From assembly GCA_913041415.1 (NCBI GenBank), contig CAJWHS010000003.1, positions 603-64,602 on the forward strand: 64,000 nt of DNA. The letters run 5' to 3'. Below, piece by piece: positions 4,878 through 63,287 of the stretch. This DNA is from an uncultured Acidimicrobiaceae bacterium (lineage in GTDB: Bacteria > Actinomycetota > Acidimicrobiia > Acidimicrobiales > Aldehydirespiratoraceae). The position numbers and the translations under genes are program-made. Under the pieces are notes generated by a model. That model had not been told where the DNA came from, searched no databases, and saw nothing but the letters and a program-made list of their open reading frames with translations. Numbering within the stretch: the first letter of the stretch is position 1; each line of letters starts with the position of its first letter.

Positions 4878-4957
4878 GCGCGAATCCTCGCACATCCACA
4901 AGGCTGGAAGGATCGCCCGAATCTGACGCCTTGTCAGGTCACCGGTACGATGACTGA

Positions 4958-10653: not shown

Positions 10654-10709
10654 GGCCGTACGGTATCGGCGCATGCTCCGACGGGCGTCTTCGTGCGAGA
10701 CTGCCCACC

Positions 10710-11093
10710 GTGTCCGACCCGACCGACGAGGTCCTCCTCCGCATCCCCGCCCGCCCGGAATACGGGCGCATCTTGCGGGTCGGTGGCGCTGCGCTTGGGA
10801 TGCGGCGAGGACTCTCGTTCGCAGAAATTGACGAATTGCGGCTCGCCGTCGACGAAGCGGTGATCCTGCTGCTCGATGGCTCCGGTGCAGACGGCGATAC
10901 CGAACTCATCGCGACCTTCCGGTTCGACGACAGCCACCTCGAGGTCGAGATCGCCACCGGCCGAACCGAAGCATTGCGCAGTAACGCGGTCGCCCGGTTC
11001 GGCGAGGTGTGTTCGCCGCTGATCGACGCCTACGAAGTCAACCCCGACCGAGGCTGGTTGCGGCTTCGGAAGGCGCCGGCACAGGTCGACTGA
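10710..11093 (+). CDS. hypothetical protein, anti-sigma-factor (RsbW/SpoIIAB HATPase)-like
   Basis: Taken from ORF 10473..11093 with a proposed GTG start at 10710 (VSDPTDEVLLRIPARPEYGRILRV...EIDELRLAVDEAV). The resemblance to anti-sigma regulatory factors is weak and comes from memory only. Confidence 0.4.
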   Translation: MSDPTDEVLLRIPARPEYGRILRVGGAALGMRRGLSFAEIDELRLAVDEAVILLLDGSGADGDTELIATFRFDDSHLEVEIATGRTEALRSNAVARFGEVCSPLIDAYEVNPDRGWLRLRKAPAQVD

Positions 11094-11094
11094 C

Positions 11095-11532
11095 TCAACG
11101 ACCGCTCGACCCGAAGCCCTTGTCGCCCCGCTCGCTGTCGTCCAGCGTGTTGACCTCGACGAACGTGACATGCTCGACCGCCTGTACGACGAGCTGGGCG
11201 ATGCGCTCACCGCGGGCGACCTCGAATGGTTCGGTCGGGTCATGGTTGATCAGGCACACCTTCAGCTCACCCCGGTAACCGGAGTCGATCAGGCCCGGGG
11301 TATTCAAAACGGTGACCCCGTGCTTGAACGCAAGACCGCTCCGCGGCTGGACCAGGCCTGCGTAGCCCTCCGGAAGCGCAATCGCGATACCGGTAGCGAC
11401 GAGGGCCCGACCGCCGGTGGGAGCAAGGATGACGCTCTCTCGGGCGACCAGGTCGATGCCGGCGTCACCCGCTCGGGCGTAGGCCGGGAGCGGCAGGTCG
11501 GGATCGAGGCGGAGGACGGGGAGATCAAGCAC
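11095..11532 (-). CDS. dut: dUTP diphosphatase
   Basis: 145 aa with motifs [15 protein letters not shown] and [10 protein letters not shown]. Confidence 0.95.
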
Positions 11533-11571
11533 GGTGCGAAGCTAGCGGACGCAGCCGTCTACCCTGACACG

Positions 11572-12120
11572 ATGCTCGCCTGGATGGACTTGGAGATGAC
11601 GGGACTCGAACCCGACCGGCACGTGATCGTTGAGATCGCCACGCTGCTCACCGACGACGATCTCGAGTTGATCGCTGAGGGACCCGACCTTACCGTCCAC
11701 GCTACGCCGGAGCAGTTGGCGGAGATGGACGACTTCGTCACCAATATGCACACCCGCAGTGGCCTGCTTGACCAGATCACCACATCGACGACCAGTCTCG
11801 AGGAGGCCGGTGCGCAGACGCTCGCCTTCCTGCAAGAGCACATCCCCGAGGCCCGAACCGTGCCGCTGTGCGGCAACTCGATCGGTACCGATCGTCGCTT
11901 CCTCGCCGCCCATCTCCCCGAGGTCGAGGAGTTCCTCCACTACCGCTCAATCGACGTCTCCACGTTGAAGGAACTCGCCCGCCGTTGGAACCCTGACACC
12001 CTCAAGACGGCGCCGAAAAAAGCCGGCGACCACCGTGCCCTGGACGACATCCGCGAGAGCCTCGAAGAGCTGCGCCACTACCGGCAAGCGCTTTTCGTTT
12101 CCCGCGACGCTTCCTCCTAG
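11572..12120 (+). CDS. orn: oligoribonuclease
   Basis: C-terminal 182 aa of ORF 11170..12120, starting at ATG 11572 (MLAWMDLEMTGL). DEDDh exonuclease motifs are present (DLEMTGL, CGNSIGTDRRFL, HRALDDI). Confidence 0.9.
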   Translation: MLAWMDLEMTGLEPDRHVIVEIATLLTDDDLELIAEGPDLTVHATPEQLAEMDDFVTNMHTRSGLLDQITTSTTSLEEAGAQTLAFLQEHIPEARTVPLCGNSIGTDRRFLAAHLPEVEEFLHYRSIDVSTLKELARRWNPDTLKTAPKKAGDHRALDDIRESLEELRHYRQALFVSRDASS

Positions 12121-14381: not shown

Positions 14382-14750
14382 ATGCAAACCCTCGTCGACA
14401 CCAACATTCACACCACCATCAGCGTCGGGGACCTCCCCTGGGAGGACATCGCGGCGTGCCGTGCCGTGCCAAACGCTGCGGATCTCTTCTTCAGCGAGGA
14501 CATCGGCGATATCGCCGCAGCCAAACGCGTGTGCGCCGACTGTTCGGTGTTGGCCGAGTGCCTCGAAGGGGCGCTCGACCGACGCGAGTTGTTCGGCGTG
14601 TGGGGTGGGCAACTCTTCATCAACGGCAAGATGCTGACGGTGAAGCGCCGACGGGGTCGACCCCCGAAGGTCGCCCGTCCGGAGGACCAGATGCCGGTCG
14701 TGCCGATTCCGGTGCATCTGCAGGTCACCGCCCAGAAGCGGTCCGCCTGA
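14382..14750 (+). CDS. whiB7: WhiB-family Fe-S transcription factor with C-terminal AT-hook (WhiB7/WblC-like)
   Basis: C-terminal 122 aa of ORF 14004..14750, starting at ATG 14382 after the RBS agagaggagacgagg. It has four Cys (C..., CADCSVLAEC), the turn motif GVWGG, and the AT-hook KRRRGRPPK. The tail parallels the M. tuberculosis WhiB7 tail (PWGVWGGEIF...KRPRGRPRK) as I recall it. Confidence 0.85.
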   Translation: MQTLVDTNIHTTISVGDLPWEDIAACRAVPNAADLFFSEDIGDIAAAKRVCADCSVLAECLEGALDRRELFGVWGGQLFINGKMLTVKRRRGRPPKVARPEDQMPVVPIPVHLQVTAQKRSA

Positions 14751-14898
14751 GTCCCTCCCAAACCCGGTGGCGGGGTCGTCCCCCGGACCCCGCCACCCCA
14801 CGATCCCCCCACCGCCCGCCCCGGCGTCCTCCACGGCCCGAGTGACGTCGATCGAGCTCCGGCCGTAGCCGGGGACGGGCGGTGGGCATGGGAACGAA

Positions 14899-14938
14899 GA
14901 TGGCGACCGATGCCGGAGGTCGCCATCTCGTCGTTTTC
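14899..14938 (+). terminator. intrinsic terminator downstream of whiB7-like gene
   Basis: 10-bp stem gatggcgacc / ggtcgccatc with a 9-nt loop, followed by tcgtcgttttcgc. Confidence 0.5.
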
Positions 14939-15000
14939 GCCGCACTGGGGGCGTGCTACCCCGACGCCCTCGCTCACGGTGACGCCCGCTAGCGTTTTGC

Positions 15001-15573
15001 ATGGAGCCTTCCGTGTCTCATTCCCCCGCCTTTCGTCCAATCCGTCGCCACGTCATTCTCGGCGTCGCCGGCCTGCCGGCGCTCCTAGGCGCCTGTGGCG
15101 GTGAGGACGACGTCACCCGGCTCACCAACGACCCGATTCCGCTCGAGGAACTCCAAAACGACAACGCGATCGGATCCGGCGTTGACATCGACTTCACGAC
15201 CTTCGACGGATCCCCGTCGAACTTCGCCGCCTACGCCGGCACGCCACTGGTCGTGAATTTCTTCTCTCGCACCTGTGCGCCATGTGTGACCGAGATGCCG
15301 GAGTTTGAGGCAGTCTTCCAGGCGTTCGACGGTAATGTCGCCTTCGTTGGGATCTCCACCGACACCCGGTTCGGTGACGCCGAACTGATCGTCGAGCAAA
15401 CCGGCGTCACCTATGACCTTGGCTGGGACCCGAACACCGACGTGTTCGAGCGGTTCGGCGGGTTCGCCATGCCGACCACCGTGTTCGTCGATGCCGCAGG
15501 GGTGGTTCGTGAAACCTGGTCGGGTGTGCTCACCGCCACAGAGCTGACCGCCAAGATCGAGAACATCGCCTGA
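15001..15573 (+). CDS. TlpA/ResA-like thiol-disulfide oxidoreductase lipoprotein
   Basis: 190 aa with a signal peptide carrying lipobox LLGAC and a thioredoxin-fold CxxC motif (FFSRTCAPCVTEMPEF). Confidence 0.85.
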   Translation: MEPSVSHSPAFRPIRRHVILGVAGLPALLGACGGEDDVTRLTNDPIPLEELQNDNAIGSGVDIDFTTFDGSPSNFAAYAGTPLVVNFFSRTCAPCVTEMPEFEAVFQAFDGNVAFVGISTDTRFGDAELIVEQTGVTYDLGWDPNTDVFERFGGFAMPTTVFVDAAGVVRETWSGVLTATELTAKIENIA

Positions 15574-16691
15574 TGAGTATCGAAGCGCTGGCGTTCCCGT
15601 TCAGTGTCGGCATGTTGGCGGCGTTTAACCCTTGCGGCTTCGCCATGTTGCCGACCTATATCGGCTACTTCATCGGCACCGGCGACACCGAACAGCCCAC
15701 CAGGGTGCGGGCGATCACCCGCGGCCTTTGGGTCGGCTCGATGCTGACACTGGGCTTCGTTGCCGTGTTCGGTGGGCTCGGGATTCTGATCTCGTTGTTC
15801 CTGAGCCAGGGCACGGTGGTCGAGTACCTCGGCTATGTCACGGTCGCTCTCGGCGTTGCGCTCATCTCGATGGGGATCGCCATGTTCACGGGCAGAGAGA
15901 TCATGCTGAACCTCCCGAAGTTGAACAATGGCACCGACAGCCGCGAGAGCAGTTCAATGTTCCTCTTCGGCGTCTCGTATGCCGTCGTCTCGCTGAGCTG
16001 CACGATCGGCTTGTTCATCTCGGCAGTGTCGAACGCCTTCACCACCGACGGCTTCGTTCAGGGGGTGGGAAGCTTCGTCGCCTACAGCCTCGGTATGGGC
16101 ACCATCATTCTCTTTCTCACCGTGAGTCTTGCCCGGGCGAAGAACAACGTCGCCACCAACATGCGGCGGCTCCTCCCGTTCATGGGGACGGTCTCCGGCA
16201 TCGTTCTCATCATCGCCGGCATCTACCTGATCGACTACGGCATCTGGGAAATCCGGATCCAAGACGATCTCGGTGCCCCGAATCTGCTGGTTGACCAGCT
16301 CGAGGCCTTCCAGGCCGCAGTTTCCAACTGGATCGTCGATGCCACCCCGGAACGCATCGGCGTGCTCTCCGTCGTGCTCATCGCCGGCATCTACCTCCTG
16401 GCCTGGTTCGAGGACAACCCTGGTGATCGCCTTCGCCAATGGTCGCTTGCGGTCGCGTGGGCGGCGGTCGTGCTCTTCCTCGAGGCCTTCAACGGCTTCG
16501 ATTTCCTGATCACCCCGATCTGGCGCTTCGCAGCGAACTGGCCGTTCCGCATCGGCAACTGGTTCACCGATCCGCTCCGCGGTGGAGTCCCGATCGAGGT
16601 CTTCTTCGTGGCCTTGGTCGCCCTGTGGGCATACCGCGAAGCCGACAGCTACCGTCGCTCTCGTGCTGCGGTCACTGCTGGAGCGTCCTGA
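15573..16691 (+). CDS. ccdA: cytochrome c biogenesis protein CcdA (DsbD family) with extra C-terminal membrane region
   Basis: 372 aa with the two conserved membrane cysteines (FNPCGFAMLP and SLSCTIGLF). The start overlaps the stop of the upstream redoxin gene. The last roughly 130 aa form additional hydrophobic helices. Confidence 0.85.
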   Translation: MSIEALAFPFSVGMLAAFNPCGFAMLPTYIGYFIGTGDTEQPTRVRAITRGLWVGSMLTLGFVAVFGGLGILISLFLSQGTVVEYLGYVTVALGVALISMGIAMFTGREIMLNLPKLNNGTDSRESSSMFLFGVSYAVVSLSCTIGLFISAVSNAFTTDGFVQGVGSFVAYSLGMGTIILFLTVSLARAKNNVATNMRRLLPFMGTVSGIVLIIAGIYLIDYGIWEIRIQDDLGAPNLLVDQLEAFQAAVSNWIVDATPERIGVLSVVLIAGIYLLAWFEDNPGDRLRQWSLAVAWAAVVLFLEAFNGFDFLITPIWRFAANWPFRIGNWFTDPLRGGVPIEVFFVALVALWAYREADSYRRSRAAVTAGAS

Positions 16692-22874: not shown

Positions 22875-23774
22875 CTAGCGAGTCTCGACGGGCGGCTCAC
22901 CGGCTTCGGCGAACCGCTGCTCGACGTCGTCAAACGTGAGCCGCCGGTTGTGACGGTCGCGCCGGGCCTGCTCTTCGGCTCGGGCGTTGTTCGCAGCAAG
23001 ACGGAAGAAGCGGACGGCGATGATCGTCCAGAGGTAGAAGCCGCCGATGACCTTCATGACCGCACCGGCGGCCTGCTGGTCTTCGACCGGCGAGATGCCC
23101 CACAGTGCATCGTCGGTCTCGTAGGCCTCGTAGACGACGCTCTCGGCGAAGGTGAGCCAACCGGCCGGCACCGTGGGCACGATCGACATGAGGAAGAGGT
23201 ACAGCATCTTCCCGGGCTCGCCCATCTGGAGTTCCTTGAGCGGACCGACGACCGGGAACCACATGAGCAGCGCCGACGCAAACACCAACAGGTGGATCGC
23301 GTAGTGGAACGGGCCGTTGTTCGACGACAGATTCACCACTGCTCCCCAGTGGGTGAGGATCTGCAGCGCGTTGAAGACGGTGCCCGCCACAATCGGCTTG
23401 GTGAGCACCCGCAGAATCCGCTGGGGTGCGCCATCGTCAAGAATGACGAGGCGGGCCAGCCACGCCGGCATCGCCAACAAGAGCAACGGCGGAATGATGA
23501 AGCTGATCAGCAGGTGCTGGAGCATGTGAACGAAGTACAGGTGCTCCTCAGCGATGTCATGCATCGGCCAGTCGGCGGCGAACCACAACATGACCACACC
23601 GACGATGAAGAACCGCTTCTGATCGACCGTGGTAACCGGCTCCCCTGCCGGCACCACGAGTGGTCCAATGGTTCGGACCGAATAGATCCCCAAGCCGATG
23701 ATCGCAGCCACCAGCAACCACACTTCCGGGTGGAAGTCGTAGTCCGACGCGCTCGCAGCGAACAGGGAAGTCAT
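22875..23774 (-). CDS. ctaG: cytochrome c oxidase assembly protein (Caa3_CtaG family)
   Basis: 299 aa polytopic membrane protein with the motif YFVHMLQHLLISFIIPPLLLLAMP. It is the last gene of the oxidase operon. Confidence 0.85.
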   Translation of the reverse strand: MTSLFAASASDYDFHPEVWLLVAAIIGLGIYSVRTIGPLVVPAGEPVTTVDQKRFFIVGVVMLWFAADWPMHDIAEEHLYFVHMLQHLLISFIIPPLLLLAMPAWLARLVILDDGAPQRILRVLTKPIVAGTVFNALQILTHWGAVVNLSSNNGPFHYAIHLLVFASALLMWFPVVGPLKELQMGEPGKMLYLFLMSIVPTVPAGWLTFAESVVYEAYETDDALWGISPVEDQQAAGAVMKVIGGFYLWTIIAVRFFRLAANNARAEEQARRDRHNRRLTFDDVEQRFAEAGEPPVETR

Positions 23775-23778
23775 GGCG

Positions 23779-24108
23779 TTATCCGAATACGTTGAACGCT
23801 AAGAGGGTCACGATGTAAACCGTCGTGGCAAGAAGCACCCCGGCGAAGAAGGACTGCTGCAGAACCGGCTTGTCCTGCTTCAAGTGCATGAACACCCGAA
23901 CGACCAGCCAGCCTTTGAAGATCATCATCGTGAACAACGACGTGAGCAGGATCCAGCGGGTCTCGAAGAAGGTGAAGACCGATTCGAAGTAGGTCGCAAC
24001 CTCCGCCGCAGTGACCACAGCAAGGATGGTGGCGACCTTGATGTACTCCCAGTCGGACGGGTGGTGATCGTCGTGGGTCTCGACGGCCGCTTCGGTGGTT
24101 TCGCTCAT
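23779..24108 (-). CDS. ctaF: cytochrome c oxidase subunit IV (prokaryotic COX4 type)
   Basis: ORF 23779..24159; the likely start is ATG ending at 24108 (MSETTEAAVETHDDHHPSDWEYIKV). It has three hydrophobic helices and lies directly after ctaE. Confidence 0.75.
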   Translation of the reverse strand: MSETTEAAVETHDDHHPSDWEYIKVATILAVVTAAEVATYFESVFTFFETRWILLTSLFTMMIFKGWLVVRVFMHLKQDKPVLQQSFFAGVLLATTVYIVTLLAFNVFG

Positions 24109-24113
24109 GTCGC

Positions 24114-24737
24114 TCACTCCGGCGGGATCAGATAGATGACGGTGAAGATGAAGATCCACACGAGATCGACGAAGTGCCAGTAAAGGCCGACGATCTCAAC
24201 GGTCTCACTGTTCTTGCCGGTCAGCTTGCCCTGGTTGGCAGCAACCCACAGCGACATCAGCATGATGATGCCGATGCTCACGTGGGCACCGTGGAATCCG
24301 GTGAGGGTGTAGAAGGCTGACGCCGCCGGGTTGGTGGTGTAGCCGAGGCCCTCCTCGTAGAAGGCGGTAAACTCGTAGGCCTGGCCACCCATGAAGACGG
24401 CGCCGAGCATGGCCGTGACGAGCAGCCACGCCTTGCCTCGATCGAGGTCGTTGCGGCCGAACGCCGAGAGGGCGAGCACCATCGTGAGCGAGCTCATGAG
24501 GAGCACGAACGACGAGACCGACGTGAACGGGATGTCGAACAGGTCGGTTGGCAGGACCTCACTATTGCCCCGTGTCTTGTAGATCAGGTACGTCGAGATG
24601 AGCGCACCGAACAGCAAACACTCCGTCGACAAGAACAACCACATCGCCAACTTGTTGTTGGAGATGCCCGTGTTCGTGGCGTGCGGGTCGTGGGAGTCGT
24701 GATGTATATCGGTGGCCGGGGCCGTTGCGGTCGCCAT
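24114..24737 (-). CDS. ctaE: cytochrome c oxidase subunit III
   Basis: 207 aa with motifs FYTLTGFHGAHV and LYWHFVD. The start shares 1 nt with the ctaD stop. Confidence 0.93.
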   Translation of the reverse strand: MATATAPATDIHHDSHDPHATNTGISNNKLAMWLFLSTECLLFGALISTYLIYKTRGNSEVLPTDLFDIPFTSVSSFVLLMSSLTMVLALSAFGRNDLDRGKAWLLVTAMLGAVFMGGQAYEFTAFYEEGLGYTTNPAASAFYTLTGFHGAHVSIGIIMLMSLWVAANQGKLTGKNSETVEIVGLYWHFVDLVWIFIFTVIYLIPPE

Positions 24738-26743
24738 CAGTCCTCCCCCTCCATATCGTCGCCGGCGGCGCCAACCGTGGCGAGTTCGCCATCGGGGTCG
24801 CCACCGTCGCGGTGGTCGTCGTGGCCATGGGCACCGGCGTCCGGATCATCGACCGGCTCCAACACCCAGGCGTAGATGGCGCCGCCGGTGAGCAGACCGC
24901 CCACCACACAAAGCCAAAGGTTGAAGATGAGGCCGTAGCCGATGAGCGGCAGGCCGATGGCCAGCACGAGTGGCCAGAACGACGGCGACGGAAGGTGCAC
25001 GCCGACGGCGTCGCCCTTTTGCGCTGCGTCCTCAGCAGAGGAGATACGAACGACCGAACCGTCGTCTTCGATGTTGTACTTGCGGAACCACCAGTCGTCC
25101 TGCGACTCGATGACCGGAATCTCGTCGAAGTTGTGCTCCGGAGTTGGCGACGGGATCGACCACTCGAGGCTGCGGGCATCCCACGGATCGGGGCCTGGGG
25201 CCGGAAGGTTCGGGGCGTCCTTCTTGGACTTGTAGACGTTCCACAGGAAGTACAACACCGACGCACCGAGAATGTACGAACCGATCGTTGCTACGAGATT
25301 CCAGAACTCGAAGCCGAAGCCCGACGAGTAGGTGTTGATGCGGCGACTCATGCCCTGCAGGCCGAGCACGTGCATCGGGCCGAAGGTCAGGTTAAAGCCG
25401 ATGAGCATGGCCCAGAAGTGGATCTTGCCGCGTCGCTCGTCAAGCAAATGACCGAACACTTTCGGCCACCAGAAGTAGACGCCGGCGAACAGACCGAGGA
25501 CACCGCCACCGAAGATCACATAGTGGAAGTGCGCAACGATGTAGTACGTGTCGGTCTGCTGGGTGTCGGCCGGGGCGAGCGAGTGGGTGACCCCCGACAG
25601 GCCACCGATGGTGAACATCGTGACAGTGCCGACGGCGAACAGCATCGCCGTGGAGAAGTTGAGCTTGCCGCCCCACATCGTGGCGAGCCAGTTCAGGATC
25701 TTCACACCGGTCGGCACGGCGATGAACATCGTCGCCATCGAGAAGGCAAACACCGAGATCGGACCGATGCCGGACACGAACATGTGGTGGGCCCACACGC
25801 CCCAACCCATGAACCCGATCGCGATGCCGGAGAACACCATGAACGAGTAGCCGAAAATGGGCTTCCGGCTGAATGCCGGGATCACTTCGGAAATGATGCC
25901 GAAGCTCGGGAGGATGATGATGTACACCTCGGGGTGACCGAAGATCCAGAAGAGGTGCTGCCAGAGCAACGGATCAGCGCCCGCTTCAGGATCGAAGAAC
26001 TGCGAGTCGAACTGGCGGTCGAACAGCAACAACAGAAGCGCCACGGTGATGACCGGCAGGGCGAAGGCCAGCAGAAACTGCGTGACCAGGAGCATCCAGG
26101 TCAACACCGGCATGCGGAACAGGCTCATGCCCGGAGCCCGCATGTTGAGACACGTCACCGCCAGGTTGACAGCGGAGACCAACGATGCGATACCGGTGAT
26201 CAGTAGGCCGATCGCGTAGAAGTCAACGCCGTTGGTCGGCGAGAAGGTGATGCCGCTGTTGGGTGAGTAGCAGAACCAACCGCAGTCGGCGCCGCCGCCA
26301 CCGACGATCCACGACGTGTTGAGGAAGATCGCCCCGGAGAGCCAGACCCAGAACGAGAGCGCGTTCAGACGGGGGAAGGCGACATCGCGGGCGCCGATCT
26401 GCAACGGGATCAAATAGTTGGCGAACGCTGCCGCAAACGGCATGACGAACAAGAAGATCATCGTGACGCCGTGCATCGTGAAGATCTGGTTATAGACGTC
26501 GGCGCTCAGGAAGCCACTCTCCGGGAAGGCCAGCTGGGTGCGGATGAGCAGCGCTTCAAGGCCACCGACGAGGAAGAAGAACATCGCGGCAACGCCGTAC
26601 ATGATGCCGATCTTCTTGTGGTCGACGGTGCTAACCCAGTCCTTCCAACTTCCGTTGGCCTGGGGCCGGGTCAGGACGCCGAGCGGCCGCTCCGCGTGCT
26701 GCTCACCACTGGTGAGAGCAAGAGGTTCTTCGATGATCGCCAT
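24737..26743 (-). CDS. ctaD: cytochrome c oxidase subunit I (A-type) with C-terminal two-helix extension
   Basis: 668 aa. All canonical ligand motifs are present: FTMHG, WIFGHPEVYI, WAHHMF, VAHFHYV. The D-channel motif ARDVAFPR is also present. Confidence 0.97.
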   Translation of the reverse strand: MAIIEEPLALTSGEQHAERPLGVLTRPQANGSWKDWVSTVDHKKIGIMYGVAAMFFFLVGGLEALLIRTQLAFPESGFLSADVYNQIFTMHGVTMIFLFVMPFAAAFANYLIPLQIGARDVAFPRLNALSFWVWLSGAIFLNTSWIVGGGGADCGWFCYSPNSGITFSPTNGVDFYAIGLLITGIASLVSAVNLAVTCLNMRAPGMSLFRMPVLTWMLLVTQFLLAFALPVITVALLLLLFDRQFDSQFFDPEAGADPLLWQHLFWIFGHPEVYIIILPSFGIISEVIPAFSRKPIFGYSFMVFSGIAIGFMGWGVWAHHMFVSGIGPISVFAFSMATMFIAVPTGVKILNWLATMWGGKLNFSTAMLFAVGTVTMFTIGGLSGVTHSLAPADTQQTDTYYIVAHFHYVIFGGGVLGLFAGVYFWWPKVFGHLLDERRGKIHFWAMLIGFNLTFGPMHVLGLQGMSRRINTYSSGFGFEFWNLVATIGSYILGASVLYFLWNVYKSKKDAPNLPAPGPDPWDARSLEWSIPSPTPEHNFDEIPVIESQDDWWFRKYNIEDDGSVVRISSAEDAAQKGDAVGVHLPSPSFWPLVLAIGLPLIGYGLIFNLWLCVVGGLLTGGAIYAWVLEPVDDPDAGAHGHDDHRDGGDPDGELATVGAAGDDMEGED

Positions 26744-26746
26744 TGC

Positions 26747-28006
26747 TCACTCCACCTCCGTCGCCGCCAGGATCTCGGCCGACGGCTTCTCGCCGAGGGT
26801 CTCGAGATAGGCGACGAGATCGCTAATCGTTCGTTCGGACAGACCCAGATTGGGCATGCCTCGGGGCAATTCACCATCGGGAAGCCCGTTGGCGTAGTTC
26901 TCCTTCACAGTTTCGGGGGCTCGCAGCCACTGCGAAATGTCGTTGCGATTCCACTCGCCAGCCTCGGTGTAGGTGTTGAGGATGCCGCCAGCGAAGGTCG
27001 TGCGGCTCGCGAAGTGGGTGAGGTTCGGCGCGGCCTGCGAGACCACGGCAGCGGCGATGTCCTCATCGCCATTGAAACCCTCGACCAGGTGGCACGACGA
27101 GCAGTTGGCGAGGAATGCCGTGGCGCCTCGCGAGACGGGGTCGTCGGCATTCTCCGGCGGCGCGCTCTGCGGGACCATCTGCTCATCGATCCAGTTCTGG
27201 AAGTCGACGGGGTCCATTGCGATGGTCTGCATCCGCATTTTTGCATGCGAGAGGCCACAGAACTCGGTGCACTGACCGAAGTAGACGCCAGGCTCATCGG
27301 CGGAGATTTCCCACGGAGCGAAGAAGCCTGGGCGGGCATCGCGCTTGCCGTTGAGCGCTGGGATCCAGAACGAGTGGATCACGTCACGGGACGTGACGAG
27401 CAACTCGACCTCTTGACCGGTCGGGATGACCATCTGCCCAGCCGTGACGATGTCGGCGGGCGGGAGGTTGCGGGGATCATCGAGGAAGTCGGCGTCGACA
27501 TCCTCGGTGAAGTAGTAGCGGAACTCCCACCACCACTGCTGGCCGACCACGACGACCTTGGGCTCCCAACTGGTGGAGTCGCCCTCGACCTCGACCTCGT
27601 AGGCGTTGGCCTCGGTCTCGTTGAGGGAGAAGTGCGCGACGGTGGTGAGCACTGCCACGACGACCATGATGATCGCTGGGACGATGGTCCAGCCGATCTC
27701 CAGGGTGTTGTTGTGGGAGATCTGCTCAGGGAATTCGTCGTCGCCGTCGTAGCTCTTCACCCGCTGCTTCTTCGCCATGTAAACCACGGCGCCAAGCACG
27801 AGGACGCCGATCACCCCGGCGATGACCAGCACACGGTCGAGCAAGGTGTCGATGTCACGGGCGTTGTTGCTCTGCGGTTGCAGCGTGTCGAGTTCGGCAT
27901 CGCCAGCGCAGCCGGCCGTGATCAGGCCGATCAGGGCAAGAACGCCTAACAGGCGCGTGCGGGAATCACTCACTGGCTTCTCCCTCTTCCGAATGGTCTT
28001 CACCAT
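26747..28006 (-). CDS. ctaC: cytochrome c oxidase subunit II fused to cytochrome c domain (caa3 type)
   Basis: ORF 26747..28102; the likely start is ATG ending at 28006, with GTG ending at 27973 as the alternative. It has a lipoprotein signal (LITAGC), the CuA motif CTEFCGLSHAKM, and a C-terminal heme c site CSSCH. Confidence 0.93.
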   Translation of the reverse strand: MVKTIRKREKPVSDSRTRLLGVLALIGLITAGCAGDAELDTLQPQSNNARDIDTLLDRVLVIAGVIGVLVLGAVVYMAKKQRVKSYDGDDEFPEQISHNNTLEIGWTIVPAIIMVVVAVLTTVAHFSLNETEANAYEVEVEGDSTSWEPKVVVVGQQWWWEFRYYFTEDVDADFLDDPRNLPPADIVTAGQMVIPTGQEVELLVTSRDVIHSFWIPALNGKRDARPGFFAPWEISADEPGVYFGQCTEFCGLSHAKMRMQTIAMDPVDFQNWIDEQMVPQSAPPENADDPVSRGATAFLANCSSCHLVEGFNGDEDIAAAVVSQAAPNLTHFASRTTFAGGILNTYTEAGEWNRNDISQWLRAPETVKENYANGLPDGELPRGMPNLGLSERTISDLVAYLETLGEKPSAEILAATEVE

Positions 28007-28769
28007 GGTCGTCACCGTGATGTTCGCTGTGATGTTCAAAGTCGCGCTGGCCGTCGACTGCGGTGACGATGCCACCGGCGATGACGGCGACGCCGACCGC
28101 AAGCACGAGGCCTGCGACTACGTTCCTATTCATCTTGGGTCGGGCCGCGTAGAGGATGCCCAGTCCGAAGATGGTGACGGCGATCACGCCGGCCCAAACG
28201 ACGGCGCCGAGCTTGGTCGCGTTCAGGAAGATCCGGCTGGCAGCGAGTGCCATGACCGCAACACCGAGAGCACCAGCAACGGGGATCTCGAAGGGCGCCA
28301 TGATGCGATCGCGCAGGGCCTTGTTGGCCTCGGCATCGCCGGTGGCGCGGTCGGCCCAGGCGTCCATGGTCCACTCGATCGCCACGAGTGAGCAGATCAC
28401 CAGGCCCAGAACGAACACAGCTGGGCCGAGCACAAGGCCGAGCACCATGGCGGCGCCACCGAAGGCGCCGACAACGGGCCAGAAGCTGCCCGAGACGGGT
28501 GTGGTTGGTGCGATGGCCTCGACGCCCATGTAGTGGGACTGAGCGGCCGGGTCGGCGTCGCGGAAGGCGACGATGATGCCGGCGAAGCAGGCAGACGCAA
28601 AGGCGCCACCGATGAGGACCAGGTAGCCGACATGGTCGCCCACGCCGCCCTTCCAGCCGAGCGTGACCGGACCGACGTGCTCACCGCCGGTCGAGTACCC
28701 GTAGGCGACCGCGCCGATGGTGAGGGCGATGGTGAGTCCGAAGAAGAACTTGAAGCCCGTGGTGAACAT
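27966..28769 (-). CDS. polytopic membrane protein, N-terminal part CtaF-like (actinobacterial oxidase subunit IV-like), His/Asp/Glu-rich tail
   Basis: ORF 27966..28931; the likely start is ATG ending at 28769 (MFTTGFKFFFG). It has about 6 hydrophobic helices. The motif SGSFWPVVGAFGG resembles PSPSFWPLVLAIGLP in the CtaD tail. The C-terminus is FEHHSEHHGDDHGEDHSEEGEASE. Confidence 0.6.
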   Translation of the reverse strand: MFTTGFKFFFGLTIALTIGAVAYGYSTGGEHVGPVTLGWKGGVGDHVGYLVLIGGAFASACFAGIIVAFRDADPAAQSHYMGVEAIAPTTPVSGSFWPVVGAFGGAAMVLGLVLGPAVFVLGLVICSLVAIEWTMDAWADRATGDAEANKALRDRIMAPFEIPVAGALGVAVMALAASRIFLNATKLGAVVWAGVIAVTIFGLGILYAARPKMNRNVVAGLVLAVGVAVIAGGIVTAVDGQRDFEHHSEHHGDDHGEDHSEEGEASE

Positions 28770-28776
28770 CTGATCC

Positions 28777-29367
28777 CTACTTGGTGACGAAGATGGCGAT
28801 CCAGGTGACCCAATACATGATGGAGACCGCATGCCAGAACATGGCAGCAGCGGCAACACCATCGTCCTGGGAAGGACCGAACTGACCGAACAGTGCCCGC
28901 ATCGTGGTGAGGGCGAGGAAGACGACGGCACCGATCAAGAAGACGATGTAGGTGCCGGTCATGACGAAGAACAGGAACTGGCCTTGGGTGCCGGCCAGCG
29001 CGAACCCGGTGTCGTTGATGATGAACCAGAGCTGGTTGAACACCGCCGCCCCGAACATGCCGGTGAGCGCAAGCGCTATGTAAGCGTTGGGACGATCGTC
29101 GTTGCGGATTGCCTGCACGGCCCACTGGACCGTGAAGGCGGCGAGCACGAGGGTCCAGAAGATCCAGCCCGACGGGCCGAGTTCGATCACGCCTTCAGGG
29201 AACCATTCCTCACCGGCATCGCGGGCGGCGGCCCGCTCACTGACATAGACGGCAAGCACGCCGAAGTAGGCCATGAGGGCCGCGCCACTGGCGAACATTG
29301 TGCCGACGAGCACCGTGCGGGGCCGGCGGATCGCGGGTGCGGCGAGCTGGGTGGTGGTGGCGGTCAT
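28777..29367 (-). CDS. cytochrome c oxidase subunit III-like paralogue
   Basis: ORF 28777..29481; the likely start is ATG ending at 29367 (MTATTTQL). It aligns by eye with ctaE (FFVMTGTYIVF vs FYTLTGFHGAHV; MFWHAVSIMYW vs LYWHFVDLVW). The start shares 1 nt with the upstream stop. Confidence 0.75.
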   Translation of the reverse strand: MTATTTQLAAPAIRRPRTVLVGTMFASGAALMAYFGVLAVYVSERAAARDAGEEWFPEGVIELGPSGWIFWTLVLAAFTVQWAVQAIRNDDRPNAYIALALTGMFGAAVFNQLWFIINDTGFALAGTQGQFLFFVMTGTYIVFLIGAVVFLALTTMRALFGQFGPSQDDGVAAAAMFWHAVSIMYWVTWIAIFVTK

Positions 29368-31001
29368 CAGGACTCCCCTCCCTCGTCGCCAGGCGTCTCG
29401 TCGAGCAGCGGCGCCTCCGAACGGACTCGGGCGGGCGGCTCGGCGAAGTTGCCGGCGGGCGGCGGCGTGGCGGTGGCCCACTCAAGGGTGTGGCCGCCCC
29501 ATGGGTCGTCGCCGGCCTCGCCTGGCTTGACGTAGGCCAGGGTGATCGCACCAAGTGCGCCGAGGACGCCGAGCAGCACGACGATCGAGCCGATCATCGA
29601 AAGGACGATCATGGCGTCGCCGAGACTGTCGTCGGCGGACGCCAACAGCACGTCAGGGGTGTCGACGAACCCGGCGATCACGTCGGTGGCACCGAGCAGG
29701 ACGCCGCCGAGCAGGAGGAGGATCATCGCGCCAAGCCCCTGGATGCCCGAGAAGAGGCGACCGTCGGTCTTCGGGGCCCAGAACCACCAGCCGCCGAGGG
29801 AGCCAAGAATGGCGGCGACAGCAACGAGGTTGAGCACGCCGGTATCGGCGGTGGTGCCGATGAGGTCGAGCGGGTCGATGACACGCAGAGCGCCAGCGGC
29901 AGTGGCGGCCAAGAAGAGCAGCATCGAGCCGAGAACGCCGATCATGTGGGCGGGCGGGATGCCGACCGGCGCTTCGCCGGAGACGAGGGTGGCGCTGTTG
30001 CCGCCAAGCGAGGCGAGCACGGGGACCATGGCGGCAACACCGAACGCGATGTACACCAGCGTGTCGCGCTCGTCGCCGAAGAACGGCTGGGACCAGCCGC
30101 CGATGGCGAGCAGGCCGGCGAGACCGAGGAGGATCATCATCGCCTCGTGGCTGACCTGGCGGCCCTTAGCGACGACCGGGATGACCGAGCCGGCGATGCC
30201 GAGGACAGGAACGGCAGCGGCGTACACCGCCGGCTGGTCAAGAATCCACGCCAGCTGTGCGTACAAGTCGAAGCTGGGATTGGGTGCGCCAACGAAGAGG
30301 CCGGCACCGCCGGAGAGGTCGATGTAGAGAACTGCGATATTGGCGATGGCGACTGGGAGGGTGAGAACCCAGACACTGCCTGCGACGAGCATCGACCAGG
30401 CGAACAACGGGACCTTGGTGAGACCCATGCCCGAGGTGCGCAGCGACACCACGGTGGTGACGATACAGATGGTGCCGAGGATGATCGACACCATCACCAT
30501 GCCGGTGCCGAGGAGGGTGAGTCGGATGGCGTCGGCTTCGTCACCGGAGACGCCGTCGAGGGCACCCCAGCCCCCGCCCGCGAGGACCGAAATGACGGTG
30601 ATCAGCGAGCCGAGCACATAGCCCCACGCCGCAGCGAGCGCCGCTCGAGGGAAGGCGATGTTGGTGCTGCCGACCTGCATCGGCGCGATGATGGTGGCGA
30701 GACCGACGAACAGCGGGATCGCGACCATCAACACGATGCCGAAGCGATACAGCGACCACATCTGGAAGTAGCTGTTCACCCCGCCGAACACGTCGATCGC
30801 ATCGGCATCAAGTCGCTCAAAAGAGACCAGGACACCGATCACGGAGAAGAAGAGGAGCGACAGGGCGCCGAAGCGCAGCCAGATTCGGCCAATCGCCTTG
30901 TGATCGCTGGTGGTCAGCCAGTCGTACAGTCCGCCGACCGCGGGAAGCGGCGCAGCACTGGACTCGGCCGCCTCCGAAGGCGGTGCCTCAGTCATCGTCA
31001 T
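29367..31001 (-). CDS. heme-copper oxidase subunit I-like paralogue lacking the canonical metal ligands
   Basis: 544 aa and hydrophobic throughout. Clear homology blocks to CtaD are DWLTTSDHKAIG, IAFPR, and C-terminal DPWGGHTLEW (vs DPWDARSLEW). The ligand motifs read QMWS, DQPAVY and WSQPFF, and there is no His in the helix-X equivalent. Confidence 0.85.
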   Translation of the reverse strand: MTMTEAPPSEAAESSAAPLPAVGGLYDWLTTSDHKAIGRIWLRFGALSLLFFSVIGVLVSFERLDADAIDVFGGVNSYFQMWSLYRFGIVLMVAIPLFVGLATIIAPMQVGSTNIAFPRAALAAAWGYVLGSLITVISVLAGGGWGALDGVSGDEADAIRLTLLGTGMVMVSIILGTICIVTTVVSLRTSGMGLTKVPLFAWSMLVAGSVWVLTLPVAIANIAVLYIDLSGGAGLFVGAPNPSFDLYAQLAWILDQPAVYAAAVPVLGIAGSVIPVVAKGRQVSHEAMMILLGLAGLLAIGGWSQPFFGDERDTLVYIAFGVAAMVPVLASLGGNSATLVSGEAPVGIPPAHMIGVLGSMLLFLAATAAGALRVIDPLDLIGTTADTGVLNLVAVAAILGSLGGWWFWAPKTDGRLFSGIQGLGAMILLLLGGVLLGATDVIAGFVDTPDVLLASADDSLGDAMIVLSMIGSIVVLLGVLGALGAITLAYVKPGEAGDDPWGGHTLEWATATPPPAGNFAEPPARVRSEAPLLDETPGDEGGES

Positions 31002-31144
31002 GGGTTCTGCAATCCTCTACGGCGCGGGCCCCTGCCCTCATCGCTGAAATGTTTTTGGTGCGCGTCCGGACAGCACGGACACGAACCCGCCAAAGCCTAC
31101 AGGTGCCCACCGCTTGGAGCGGAAACCGAGCACAAGGAAATGCG

Positions 31145-31232: not shown

Positions 31233-32129
31233 CTAGAGGCCGTTTCGCGCCATGACATCGATAGCCATGGCGCCAAAGAGCAGGGTCACATAGGTGATCG
31301 ACCAACCGAACAGCGCCATCGCCAGCTTCGGTCGAGGATCCCGGTACACCTTCACCGCAAGGCCGAGGAACACGGCGCCGGTCACGATCGCAACACCGAC
31401 ATAGATGGCACCCATGTCAGCGACCGGGGCAAAAGCGAGCGTGAGGCCCCAAAGCAACACTGTGTAGAGAATGATGCGGGTGGCGGTGGTCCTGAGCGAT
31501 TTCACCACCGGCAGCATCGGCACGTCCGCTGCCCGGTAATCGTCTCGGTAACGAATCGCCAAGGCCCAGAAGTGCGGTGGGGTCCAGTAAAAGATGATTG
31601 CGAAGAGCACCACCGGCGGCCAGTCAAGCGTGTTGGTGACCGCTGACCAGCCCACGAGCACGGGCACCGCCCCGGCGGCGCCACCGATGACGATGTTGGC
31701 CGTGGAGTTGCGCTTCAGCCAGAGGCTGTACACGAAGACGTAGAAGAGGGTAGCACTGACGGCGAGGCAGGCCGACAGCAGGTTGACGGTGCCCCATAAC
31801 CACAGGAAGGCAAAGATCTCGACGCCAAAGGCGAACACGATTGCTTGGCGCGGGGTGACCTCCCCGGTGACGAGCGGGCGGTCCTTGGTGCGTTCCATCA
31901 GGGCATCGATGTCGCGATCGATGTACATGTTGAAGGCGTGCGCGCCGCCGGCGGCGAGCGTGCCACCAAAAACGGTGGCGAAGATCAACCACAGCGACGG
32001 CAGCCCACCCTCGGCGACAATCATGGTCGGCACCGTCGTGACGAGCAGCAACTCGACGATCCGGAGTTTCATCAAGGCGACGAACGCAAGGACCTTCGGG
32101 CGCGTCGGCGCATGGGTGGTTGCAGTCAC
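31233..32129 (-). CDS. ctaB: protoheme IX farnesyltransferase (heme O synthase)
   Basis: 298 aa UbiA-family membrane protein with motifs N.Y.DRDID..M.RT..RP and YWTPPHFWAL. Confidence 0.95.
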   Translation of the reverse strand: MTATTHAPTRPKVLAFVALMKLRIVELLLVTTVPTMIVAEGGLPSLWLIFATVFGGTLAAGGAHAFNMYIDRDIDALMERTKDRPLVTGEVTPRQAIVFAFGVEIFAFLWLWGTVNLLSACLAVSATLFYVFVYSLWLKRNSTANIVIGGAAGAVPVLVGWSAVTNTLDWPPVVLFAIIFYWTPPHFWALAIRYRDDYRAADVPMLPVVKSLRTTATRIILYTVLLWGLTLAFAPVADMGAIYVGVAIVTGAVFLGLAVKVYRDPRPKLAMALFGWSITYVTLLFGAMAIDVMARNGL

Positions 32130-32186
32130 AATCTCAGGCTACGGCCACTAAGGCAACTCCAACCAGCTGGCCCTAACGTCTTAGGC

Positions 32187-33110
32187 ATGTTCCGTGGTGC
32201 GATTTCCCCTGAGCGCTACGTGCAGCTCGCCCGCGGCGCACTCTGGTCTCTGGCCGTCATCGTGATCACTGGGGCAGCCGTCCGGCTCACCGGTTCCGGC
32301 CTCGGCTGTTCAGACTGGCCGACATGCGAGGAGGACCAATTCGTCGCCTCACTTGAACACCACGCGCTCATCGAATTCGGGAACCGCCTCTTCACCGGGG
32401 TCGTCACGATCGCCGTGGTGCTCGCCGTCCTCGGGTCGATTCGCCGCGGTCCAAAGCGACGCGACCTGATCCGGTGGTCGTTGGGACTCGTCGTCGGCGT
32501 GATCGCCCAAATCCTGCTCGGGGCGGTGCTCGTGCTCACCCACCTCGATCCGCGTTTCACGATGGGGCACTTCATCTTGTCGATGGTGCTGCTATGGAAC
32601 GCAGCGGTGTTGATCGAGAAGGCCAAGACCGACATCGCCGACCCGGCACCGCTCTGGATGGGCGCACCATCGGGTCACGACCGCCCGATCCGCAACGCAA
32701 GCCGCACCCTCTTCGCCTTCGGCTCGATCCTGCTAGTCACCGGCACGATCGTCACCGGATCAGGCCCACACTCCGGCAGCGACGACGAACTCGTCGCCGA
32801 TCGCCTCCCGTTTCTTGTGCGAGACGTGACTCGCATCCACTCGATCACGGCGTTCACGGTGCTCGCCGTGGTGCTCGTGATCATCCGTCGTGCCCATTGC
32901 GCCGAGAAGTTCGTGTTGCGTGAGCAAGCGATGCGGCTTATGACCCTGCTGGTCGCTCAGGGTTCGGTCGGGTATTGGCAGTACTTCAGTGGCGTTCCGG
33001 CCCAACTCGTGGCGGTCCACATCACCCTCGCCTCGATCACCTGGATCCAGATCGTGCGTCTTGCGTGGCAGGCCGAACAGGTGCCGGCGCGCGATCGTGT
33101 TCTCGTATGA
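32187..33110 (+). CDS. ctaA: heme A synthase (COX15/CtaA family)
   Basis: In-frame part of ORF 31845..33110, starting at ATG 32187 ([11 protein letters not shown]). It has the motif [16 protein letters not shown] and paired His in transmembrane helices. It is divergent from ctaB. Confidence 0.9.
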
Positions 33111-33394
33111 CGGCCCCGCTCACCACACCAACCATCGACACCGAGGAACATGTGGCGTTCGATCACCCGTGGAAGGTGATCGTCTGGGATGACCCGATCA
33201 ATCTGATGTCGTATGTGGCCTTCGTATTTCGGAAGGTCTTCGGCTACTCCAAGGACCAAGCAGAGCAGTTGATGATGCAGGTGCACGTCGAGGGCCGAGC
33301 CGTCGTTTCGTCGGGAACTCGCGAGAAGGCCGAACTCGACGTCTTCCGGCTCCACGAACACGGCCTGTGGGCCACGCTCGAACAGGACCAGTGA
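33107..33394 (+). CDS. clpS: ATP-dependent Clp protease adaptor ClpS
   Basis: 95 aa from ATG 33107, which overlaps the ctaA stop as ATGA. Motifs are [19 protein letters not shown]......S...A..LM..VH..G. Confidence 0.93.
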
Positions 33395-33882
33395 TGCCGG
33401 CCTTCTTTCGTCGTCGTTTCCGTTGGAAGAACGGTCAGGTCGTCGTCGAACTACCCGACGACGAGCAGGACATGCTTCGCCACGTGCTGCCCCAGCTGCG
33501 CGAACTGGTGATGGGCGAGACCGACCCTGCACTGCGTCGGCTGTCGCCACCGGCACGACCCGACGACGCTGACGCCGAGGCGTTCTACCGCCAGATGATC
33601 ACCGACGAGTTGCTGGCGTCGCGTCTCAAGGCGATCGAGGTCGTCGAGGAAGGCATCGGCGGCACCGTCCTCGACGACGCTGGTGTCGACTCGTGGATGC
33701 ACAGCCTCAACGCCCTCCGTCTCGTGCTCGGTGAGCGGCTCGATGTCGACGTGATCGGCCACGACCTCCTTCACGACCTGGACCCCGACGACGATCGGGT
33801 GCCGATCGTGGCACTGTACGAGTGGCTCGGCTGGCTTCTTGAACAGTTGGTCGACGCTGCGATGAACAGCTTCGACCACTGA
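33394..33882 (+). CDS. DUF2017 domain protein (commonly follows clpS in Actinobacteria)
   Basis: 162 aa from ATG 33394, which shares 1 nt with the clpS stop. It is an acidic helical protein, and the family assignment is from memory of the conserved clpS neighbour. Confidence 0.7.
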   Translation: MPAFFRRRFRWKNGQVVVELPDDEQDMLRHVLPQLRELVMGETDPALRRLSPPARPDDADAEAFYRQMITDELLASRLKAIEVVEEGIGGTVLDDAGVDSWMHSLNALRLVLGERLDVDVIGHDLLHDLDPDDDRVPIVALYEWLGWLLEQLVDAAMNSFDH

Positions 33883-34007: not shown

Positions 34008-34080
34008 GCCCCATTCGTCCAGCGGCCTAGGACGCCGGCCTTTCACGCCGGTAACACGGGTTCGAATCCCGTATGGGGTG
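34008..34080 (+). tRNA. tRNA-Glu (anticodon TTC)
   Basis: Manually folded cloverleaf: acceptor gccccat/atggggt, D-stem gtcc/ggac, anticodon stem ccggc/gccgg with loop cTTTCAc, and T-arm acggg-ttcgaat-cccgt. Confidence 0.9.
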
Positions 34081-34153
34081 CGAGACGGTTGCAGGTTGTC
34101 ATCGCGATGAACGACCTCTACCGTTCCTATGTCGTTCGGTCCGCCGAGCGAGG

Positions 34154-34228
34154 GGTCCTGTAGATCAGTTTGGAGTGATCGCCACCCTGTCAAGGTGGAG
34201 GCCGCGGGTTCAAATCCCGTCAGGACCG
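34154..34228 (+). tRNA. tRNA-Asp (anticodon GTC)
   Basis: Manually folded: acceptor ggtcctg/caggacc, anticodon stem ccacc/ggtgg with loop ctGTCaa, and T-arm gcggg-ttcaaat-cccgt. Confidence 0.9.
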
Positions 34229-34264
34229 CACATGCGCCTTGCAGGAATGCAGAGCGCACCCAGA

Positions 34265-34340
34265 GGTCGGGTAGCTCAGTTGGCAGAGCGACCGCCTGAA
34301 AAGCGGTAGGTCACCGGATCGACGCCGGTCCCGACCACCA
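34265..34340 (+). tRNA. tRNA-Phe (anticodon GAA), CCA encoded
   Basis: Manually folded: acceptor ggtcggg/cccgacc, D-arm gctc/gagc, anticodon stem accgc/gcggt with loop ctGAAaa, T-arm accgg-atcgacg-ccggt, then ACCA. Confidence 0.88.
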
Positions 34341-63203: not shown

Positions 63204-63287
63204 GCGCGAGTGGCGGAATTGGCAGACGCGCAGGCTTCAGGTGCCTGTGCCCGAAAGGGTGTGAGGGTTCAAGTCCCTCCTCGCGCA
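63204..63287 (+). tRNA. tRNA-Leu (anticodon CAG), long variable arm
   Basis: Manually folded: acceptor gcgcgag/ctcgcgc, anticodon loop ctTCAGgt reading CAG, a long variable arm (gcccgaaagggtg), and T-arm gaggg-ttcaagt-ccctc. It holds the same position as leuT beside fhaA in mycobacteria. Confidence 0.9.

Follow-up and report, generated by a model that had tools for sequence, protein, structure and literature searches.

The 64,000-nt stretch of DNA analysed here (the window), from an Acidimicrobiaceae bacterium, contains a gene for a paralogue of heme-copper oxidase (HCO) subunit I in which the histidines that bind heme and copper in the working enzymes are all replaced. This gene, termed psI (pseudo-CtaD), lies on the minus strand ahead of two partner genes, psIII and X, which are followed by the genes for a working caa3-type oxidase. 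The coordinates of the three genes are as follows.

29367..31001, minus strand: psI, predicted cofactor-less HCO subunit I paralogue (pseudo-CtaD), 544 aa, ATG start
28777..29367, minus strand: psIII, divergent CtaE-like subunit III, 196 aa, 5 transmembrane helices, Pfam COX3 at E 1e-8
27966..28769, minus strand: X, membrane protein of 267 aa, about 7 transmembrane helices, unassigned in Pfam and NCBIfam

The subunit I paralogue psI and its ligand positions

The open reading frame (ORF) of psI, 31001-29367, starts with ATG and is unbroken over 544 codons, as the original prediction had described. Its G+C content at third codon positions (GC3) is 0.85, the same as that of CtaD and the neighbouring oxidase genes, which bears out the claim that its codon use is like that of its neighbours. 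The predicted homology to the CtaD encoded 2.6 kb downstream (26743-24737) was recovered by BLASTP (24% identity end to end, E 4e-37), and psI matched Pfam COX1 (PF00115) with 116 bits (E 2.3e-33, residues 37-450, cutoff 34.8), compared with 524 bits for CtaD. Against narrower models, psI scored 199.8 bits for TIGR02891 (CtaD_CoxA) and 172.8 bits for NF050116 (actinobacterial aa3 subunit I), under the respective cutoffs of 670.75 and 880, and the cbb3 subunit I model TIGR00780 (ccoN) gave no match to psI at E <= 0.01. All of its top matches, by sequence and by structure, are subunit I proteins of the A family. Several relatives are nevertheless labelled "cbb3-type cytochrome c oxidase subunit I" at NCBI, which is a generic name produced by a Pfam-level rule; the JGI label is a generic heme/copper oxidase subunit I, and X is annotated as "hypothetical protein".

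An AlphaFold model of psI built with 32 family members as input has a mean predicted local distance difference test score (pLDDT) of 80.4, a predicted template-modelling score (pTM) of 0.85 and 12 long transmembrane helices, in agreement with the roughly 12 helices predicted. With Foldseek, the best match of this model was CtaD of Corynebacterium glutamicum (E 2.7e-18, TM-score 0.83), and the CtaD chain of Mycobacterium smegmatis was matched at the equal TM-score of 0.83. psI is a genuine HCO subunit I homologue with the subunit I fold.

Ligand, channel and propionate positions were read from BLASTP, from phmmer searches against Protein Data Bank (PDB) sequences and from MAFFT alignments with 26 real CtaDs, and these methods agree except at helix X. 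The residues of CtaD and their counterparts in psI, with minus-strand codon positions where these were located, are listed below.

Helix II heme a ligand: CtaD His91, psI Tyr85 (codon 30749-30747)
D-channel entrance: CtaD Asp120, psI Asn114 (codon 30662-30660)
Helix VI CuB ligand: CtaD His270, psI Gln256 (codon 30236-30234)
D-channel Glu: CtaD Glu272, psI Ala258
Cross-link Tyr: CtaD Tyr274, psI Tyr260, retained
Helix VII CuB pair: CtaD His319/His320, psI Gln305/Pro306 (codons 30089-30084)
K-channel Lys: CtaD Lys348, psI Ser331
Helix X heme a3 ligand: CtaD His405, psI Val389 (codons 389-391 at 29837-29829)
Helix X heme a ligand: CtaD His407, psI Asn391 (codons 389-391 at 29837-29829)
Heme-propionate Arg pair: CtaD Arg467/Arg468, psI Asp450/Val451

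The substitutions that had been predicted at the helix VI ligand (with the tyrosine kept), at the helix VII pair and at the D-channel entrance are all found in these alignments. The helix II His is replaced as well, by Tyr85 and not by Trp82 as had been proposed from a hand alignment that was three residues off register. In helix X, the predicted absence of His holds in either alignment, the residues being V389 and N391 in the class-wide alignment and Asn plus a gap in the alignment of 114 sequences. As had also been noted, the whole protein contains only four His (residues 34, 285, 352 and 504), none of them at a ligand position.

Beyond the ligands, Tyr260 has lost the partner of its His-Tyr cross-link, the His being Gln256, and three further D-channel residues are exchanged (Asn to Thr103, Asn to Ala121 and Ser to Ala124), with both canonical proton channels of psI showing an apolar lining. 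The ligand positions of nitric oxide reductases (cNOR, qNOR, eNOR etc.) in the same alignment are likewise without ligands in psI. By these criteria, psI lacks all defining features of an oxygen or nitric oxide reductase while retaining the fold.

The residues that took the place of the CuB ligands are themselves conserved. In the clade of the window, Gln256, Gln305 and Pro306 are invariant in 114/114 sequences except for one Asn at the Pro position, and class-wide Gln256 is found in 62/77 and Gln305 in 60/77 orthologues. We infer that these three residues may form a hydrogen-bonded stitch that joins helices VI and VII in place of the copper. Trp252, located beside the old active site, is kept in 73/77 orthologues, and Tyr85-Arg86 is near-invariant in the window's clade.

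The two ends of psI also carry short motifs. The N-terminal peptide MTMT(E/D)SPP (30978-31001, codons 1-8) and the C-terminal motif V-x-S-E-A-P-L-L-D (29388-29421) are near-invariant, and the residues adjoining each are hypervariable. Both termini resemble the ends of mycobacterial CtaD (AEAPP... and ...RIRSERP), psI and actinobacterial CtaD having in common an N-terminal TEAPP/AEAPP peptide and a C-terminal R-[IV]-R-S-E-x-P tail. Because MTMT(E/D)SPP is like the mycobacterial CtaD N-terminus and partly like the N-termini of real CtaDs, it is probably ancestral; its interpretation as a family-specific signal or RNA element was set aside, as CtaD N-termini look alike. The terminal motifs may be cytoplasmic contact motifs.

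Conservation of psI across the class Acidimicrobiia

To place psI in its family, a scan with one genome per species was made, which returned at least 592 matching stretches; the best 80 loci were retrieved, and all of them belong to Acidimicrobiia. In these best 80, psI orthologues are intact and syntenic in 80/80 loci, with identities to psI down to 31%. The loci include Ferrithrix thermotolerans, Iamia, Rhabdothermincola, Microthrixaceae, Ilumatobacteraceae and Actinospongicola halichondriae; A. halichondriae Hal317 (L044) and F. thermotolerans (L068) are the cultured species named among them. A separate protein search gave 374 clusters; among the 120 listed, identity goes down to 47% and each sequence has 3-12 His, and the named sources are metagenome-assembled genomes of Actinomycetota/Acidimicrobiales. 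None of the retrieved loci has psI away from caa3 genes, and none contains a subunit II paralogue for the pseudo set.

Wherever a locus is long enough, the gene order is ctaA (divergent) / ctaB-psI-psIII-X-ctaC-ctaD-ctaE-ctaF, with the exceptions that ctaB lies several kb off in loci L031, L050 and L051 and that ctaA is undetected in some loci. Independent gene calls on another contig gave the identical order plus ctaG.

The ratio of nonsynonymous to synonymous substitution rates (dN/dS), estimated by the Nei-Gojobori method for 14 close pairs, is 0.06-0.44 for psI, compared with 0.04-0.22 for CtaD. The corresponding values are 0.03-0.39 for psIII, plus one value of 0.90 at a dS of 0.02, and 0.06-0.51 for X. 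The pseudo-subunits evolve about 2x faster than CtaD (31-58% versus 58-83% identity), yet they are constrained. psI is under purifying selection and kept across the class Acidimicrobiia. The original prediction of a maintained, non-catalytic protein rather than a pseudogene therefore stands, given the lost ligands, the conservation in 80/80 loci and the low dN/dS, while the scaffold function attached to it stays a proposal.

No complete six-His ligand set and no complete binuclear-centre set exists in any of the 77 psI orthologues aligned (0/77 for each). Among the channel residues, the K-channel Lys is present in 0/77, the Glu in 0/77 and the Asp in 1/77, and the Tyr260 position is often Phe or Leu across the class. 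The low-spin ligand position of helix II is occupied by Y, H, S, F, R, Q or G; because it is so variable, a function common to the family cannot rest on a metal ligand there.

The residues of psI that are conserved in these orthologues are nearly all conserved in real CtaD too, and consist of structural Gly, Pro and Trp and of cytoplasmic loops, with conserved blocks at P-x-Q-x-G...AFPR (107-119), R188...GM...P-x-F-x-W202 and DPW-x-G-x-x-LEW (499-508). The ratio of conservation in psI to that in CtaD is highest (0.70-0.85) in helices II-V, loop 3-4, the cytoplasmic loops and the C-terminal tail, and lowest (0.39-0.57) in helices VII-XI and the outer-face loops. In subunit I, the side formed by helices II-V faces subunit III, and the region of helices VII-XI, which faces subunit II, contains the hemes, CuB and the K-channel. 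The uneven constraint therefore fits a protein that would bind a subunit III partner and have neither an active site nor a subunit II.

Nine orthologues (L044, L046, L050, L052, L056, L060, L062, L064 and L079), including those of Actinospongicola halichondriae and an Iamia sp., have kept both low-spin heme ligands, within IFSLHAV in helix II and QIHYV in helix X, where the local alignment is convincing; their heme a3 and CuB ligands are gone. These nine may still be b- or a-type cytochromes. In most of their loci psI is located at about 10001-11600. A neighbour-joining tree rooted on real CtaDs recovers the psI family as monophyletic with a long stem, and the low-spin retainers are spread over its deep branches, the earliest included. 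The simplest reading of this distribution is that the active site would have been lost before the radiation of the family and the low-spin heme site several times later. As the function of psI outlived these later losses, redox chemistry is unlikely to be part of it.

Some further observations concern individual loci. The working ctaD is split in two frames in L081 (14536-16616) and L065 (about 14391-16233), which may be a true frameshift or an error of long-read metagenome assembly. In L035 (Microthrixaceae; about 14704-15894), the subunit I after the pseudo-trio is 39% identical to the CtaD of the window, compared with 58-83% in the others, and the working oxidase may have been replaced by a different type in this locus. 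L081 also has a DDE_Tnp_1 transposase and an RVT_1 reverse transcriptase gene (2753-5770) a few kb from the cta cluster.

Partner genes and the neighbouring caa3 oxidase

The start codon of psIII lies inside a TGATG overlap with the stop codon of psI, so that the overlap with the next gene noted earlier is genuine. psIII scored 45.8 bits for aa3_CtaE_Actin (NF050119), far under the cutoff of 190, versus 16.2 bits for CyoC. Among PDB sequences, psIII is matched best by mycobacterial CtaE, along its entire length (46.7 bits), and neither QoxC nor CyoC was hit in this search. The working CtaE of the window matches Bacillus subtilis QoxC (130 bits) and Escherichia coli CyoC (122) ahead of actinobacterial CtaE (87-97). 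With psIII CtaE-like but the working CtaE QoxC-like, the pseudo set is not a recent copy of its neighbours.

X is present in each locus long enough to contain it and consists of a candidate CtaF-like region (residues ~7-136) followed by 3 helices and an acidic, His-rich tail. PF12270, the model of actinobacterial subunit IV (CtaF), was matched at sub-threshold level by 13/31 X orthologues (best E 0.0012); the individually displayed matches score 11.7-16.8 bits (cutoff 26.9) and are co-linear, aligning residues 7-136 to profile positions 6-125/132, and the X of the window itself did not reach E <= 1 against PF12270. With hhalign, the SFWP (SxWP) hairpin of X was aligned to the hairpin of M. tuberculosis CtaF at E 0.0034, over the hairpin only. 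A profile of the X family gave nothing significant against PDB sequences, the top hit being the N-terminal SPWP hairpin of 7-helix COX3 (E 0.07). The AlphaFold model of X is poor (pLDDT 60.5, pTM 0.39), and its top Foldseek match is C. glutamicum CtaF (7q21_F; probability 0.94, E 0.2). Taken together, the N-terminal region of X is probably a CtaF-like domain. In mycobacteria, CtaE and CtaF jointly make up subunit III, with CtaF giving the first two helices, and together they make the contact to complex III (review PMC8361435).

Acidic, His-rich tails are found at the C-terminus of X (27966-28040; HHSEHHGDDHGEDHSEEGEASE), at the C-terminus of CtaD (about 24737-24850) and at the N-termini of CtaE and CtaF. 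The number of helices in X and the distribution of charges would place its tail outside the cell, where metal binding is conceivable.

The genes for the working oxidase and its heme and assembly factors, and a promoter-like element, surround the trio as follows.

26747..28006, minus strand: ctaC, working caa3-type subunit II fused to a cytochrome c domain as in Bacillus caa3 oxidase, lipoprotein signal LITAGC, Pfam COX2_TM, COX2 and Cytochrom_C
24737..26743, minus strand: ctaD, working subunit I, 668 aa, Pfam COX1 at 524 bits, TIGR02891 at 689.6 bits (above cutoff)
24114..24737, minus strand: ctaE, working subunit III of the QoxC/CyoC-like 5-helix type, Pfam COX3
23779..24159, minus strand: ctaF, subunit IV of the Bacillus/proteobacterial COX4_pro type, start uncertain, ATG at 24108 possible
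22875..23774, minus strand: ctaG, assembly factor of the caa3 type, closing the block, PF09678 Caa3_CtaG at E 1.5e-40
31233..32129, minus strand: ctaB, heme O synthase, Pfam UbiA at E 2.9e-64, 231 nt upstream of psI
32184..33110, plus strand: ctaA, heme A synthase, divergent from ctaB, Pfam COX15-CtaA at E 3.3e-21, start approximate
31094..31127, minus strand: promoter-like element GGTTTCC-N19-TGTAGGCT in the ctaB-psI spacer, about 90 nt upstream of the psI start

CtaD retains all ligands, as do its orthologues (26/26), and has two extra C-terminal helices as in QoxB/CyoB, with a PF12270-like hairpin at residues 579-629. The CuA and CxxCH motifs are present in the four ctaC orthologues checked (L031, L035, L058 and L060), and ctaF scores 28.2 bits for PF03626, just below the cutoff of 28.9, with TIGR02229 matched at E 7e-5.

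ctaC begins about 40 nt before the end of X. Over 68 loci, the gap between psI and psIII is -1 nt in most, the median gap is 9 nt between psIII and X and -1 nt between X and ctaC, and the ctaB-psI gap has a median of 147 nt. The tight spacing of the trio and the oxidase genes is consistent with co-expression in fixed proportion, as far as gene layout can indicate. The promoter-like motif is conserved in the aligned ctaB-psI spacers of divergent relatives; in its strict form it occurs in 13/80 spacers, with 0 occurrences elsewhere in 2.47 Mb of locus sequence on both strands. Its -10-like part is like the actinobacterial TAnnnT type, and the leader of about 85 nt between the element and psI contains conserved blocks, too. 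Generic scans for sigma-70 promoters and terminators gave nothing above chance. With the promoter-like element ahead of it, psI probably heads a transcription unit running through ctaG. Its earlier description as the first gene of the oxidase operon is accurate for the block of structural genes but not for the whole cta cluster, as ctaB precedes it.

Outside the cluster, genes for ClpS and a DUF2017 protein adjoin ctaA (32975-33882, plus strand), and a seryl-tRNA synthetase gene (22390-21101) comes after ctaG. These flanking genes are also found in the distant locus L081, so the synteny reaches past the oxidase cluster. In the 64-kb window, an Rfam search returned four tRNAs only, all on the plus strand, with three clustered at 34008-34337 and one at 63204-63287.

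Possible roles of the pseudo-subunits

The closest known counterpart of the pseudo set is the actinobacterial aa3 core, formed by CtaD, CtaE and CtaF of Mycobacterium and Corynebacterium (6adq, 6hwh and 7q21). Its subunit I has 12 helices without extra C-terminal ones, as does psI, and the CtaDs of this type are the best sequence and structure matches of psI. Its subunit III is split over CtaE and CtaF (PMC8361435), and the pseudo set is likewise composed of psIII and of X with its CtaF-like first half. Unlike the actinobacterial enzyme, the pseudo set is without ligands for heme a, heme a3 and CuB, without the proton channels and without a subunit II, and X has three helices beyond those of actinobacterial CtaF. 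By homology, psI, psIII and X are predicted to have the actinobacterial aa3 architecture and ctaCDEFG that of the Bacillus caa3 oxidase. The matches favour an origin of psIII and X from the actinobacterial type, whereas psI may descend either from this type or from the operon's CtaD, because the real CtaD also matches mycobacterial CtaD best.

Among divergent HCO proteins, the families gNOR, eNOR, bNOR, sNOR and nNOR were recognized by genome mining as subunit I families with altered active sites, as was psI. In gNOR one active-site His is replaced by Asp, and those His are described as fully conserved in all other HCO families (Murali et al. 2024, PMC11214002). gNOR still binds hemes and a metal, whereas psI is without all six ligands. 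In the searchable literature, from which subscription journals were mostly outside scope, neither an account of a ligand-less HCO subunit I nor a known HCO class with such an active site was found. NorE is a COX3-fold accessory protein of nitric oxide reductase clusters that has no cofactors; it occurs alone, whereas psIII pairs with a dead subunit I. Enzyme folds without catalysis are familiar from respiratory complexes. Core1 and Core2 of mitochondrial complex III are related to the mitochondrial processing peptidase but inactive, and plant complex I retains gamma-carbonic-anhydrase-like proteins, likewise inactive enzyme paralogues, as structural subunits. The logic proposed for psI is alike, in that a catalytic fold is kept in a respiratory assembly without its chemistry. 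The difference is that those subunits are peripheral, soluble and of foreign origin, whereas psI derives from the membrane catalytic core of the oxidase family itself, and its membership of a complex is proposed.

Our preferred hypothesis, which we hold tentatively, is that psI, psIII and X are an inert membrane module that is produced alongside the caa3 oxidase and bound to it in a structural role. The three proteins would assemble into a module with about 24 helices in total that copies the actinobacterial aa3 core without its cofactors, having a subunit I, a two-part subunit III and no subunit II. They would be translated from the tightly packed block that they share with ctaCDEFG, and the module would bind the caa3 oxidase, or a supercomplex containing it, as a permanent partner carrying no electrons and pumping no protons. 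Three parts of this hypothesis are inferred: the assembly of psI, psIII and X into one complex, its docking onto the caa3 oxidase, and a structural rather than a transient role.

Several observations weigh against this hypothesis. The position in the operon cannot tell a permanent subunit from an assembly factor, since ctaA, ctaB and ctaG share the cluster. The twofold higher rate of the pseudo-subunits relative to CtaD is one that a tight permanent interface might not allow, the invariance of Gln256, Gln305 and Pro306 in the window's clade could mean a new site for a small molecule or ion, and the assignment of X to CtaF consists of several weak, sub-threshold signals and a poor model. As for a complex III partner, no Rieske gene is found within 10 kb of the 80 loci or in the 64-kb window, and the cytochrome b marker PEW[YF] within 10 kb occurs in only two ORFs (L065 and L079), identified by motif alone. 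In addition, at least Ilumatobacter is reported to have a Firmicutes-like split cytochrome b (PMC4122944), which makes a QcrB docking of mycobacterial style doubtful. Docking onto an actinomycete-type complex III (bcc) was therefore demoted, given the lack of a linked Rieske gene and the split cytochrome b.

The main alternative, which we consider possible, though not probable, is that the trio is a transient assembly platform, on which subunits or cofactors (heme a via CtaA/CtaB, copper via CtaG) would be staged before release, by analogy with NifEN, the scaffold paralogue of nitrogenase NifDK. The location of the trio between ctaB and the structural genes, with ctaA and ctaG in the same cluster, would suit such a platform, as would its faster evolution compared with the catalytic subunits and the nine relatives with both low-spin ligands, whose ancestral form could hold heme. 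In most members of the family, however, the old sites offer nothing likely to bind heme or copper, and the residues there vary; known oxidase assembly factors are small, whereas the trio is large (about 1000 residues and 24 helices); and the conserved overlap and tight spacing with the structural genes suggest structural rather than catalytic amounts. A new, independent activity is unlikely: the remodelled CuB pocket would bind or conduct a small molecule or ion, or act in sensing, and the operon link would be regulatory. The invariant Gln256, Gln305 and Pro306 of the window's clade, the class-wide frequency of both Gln and the retention of Trp252 by the old active site would be accounted for in this way, but the residues conserved class-wide are nearly all CtaD structural positions and cytoplasmic loops, both canonical proton channels are apolar, the helices round the old active site are the least constrained, and the gene is never apart from caa3 genes in the retrieved loci.

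It is very unlikely that psI is still redox-active through non-His ligands such as Tyr85. The near-invariance of Tyr85-Arg86 in the window's clade and the bis-His low-spin site of the nine relatives could be taken that way; the psI of the window, however, has Asn391 in place of a second axial ligand and no propionate arginines, the helix II position is variable across the family, and no subunit II paralogue exists as an electron feed. A decaying pseudogene or a recent neutral tandem duplicate, for which the loss of all catalytic residues is the one supporting observation, has almost no probability left. The reading frame is unbroken over 544 codons, orthologues as distant as 31% identity are in place across the class, dN/dS is well under 1, and psI has 12 helices versus the 14 of CtaD together with partners of the actinobacterial type. 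With an architecture so unlike the adjacent real genes, psI is not a recent copy of a neighbour, and the conservation of synteny in 80/80 loci together with the dN/dS values of 0.06-0.44 refutes the pseudogene reading.

A more far-reaching version of the structural-partner hypothesis, which we regard as doubtful but worth stating, is that psI is part of a fossil oxidase. An ancestral aa3 oxidase of the actinobacterial type would have lost its binuclear centre before the radiation of the class and its low-spin heme repeatedly thereafter, and its I/III/IV core would have become an obligatory, redox-silent module of a Firmicutes-like caa3 chain. The core might serve, for example, as a pseudo-dimer partner of the active enzyme or as an organiser of supercomplexes. 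If this were true, it would be the first case of a respiratory complex with an inactive copy of its own catalytic core at its centre.

On the evidence of the alignments, the psI family represents a branch of pseudo-enzymes within the heme-copper oxidase superfamily, accompanied by partner subunits of its own. The loss of all six ligands under class-wide selection, probably sustained for a very long time, would mean that the 12-helix scaffold is useful beyond catalysis. psI is a natural experiment on how the oxidase membrane core folds and packs without hemes or copper, and the relatives with the low-spin site only offer an ordered series for studying cofactor loss. In metabolic reconstructions, the abundant marine, soil and wastewater Acidimicrobiia may at present be credited with a further terminal oxidase that they do not have, since public records name these proteins oxidase subunit I. 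Should the module belong to the oxidase complex, a new respiratory architecture would be expected in these bacteria.

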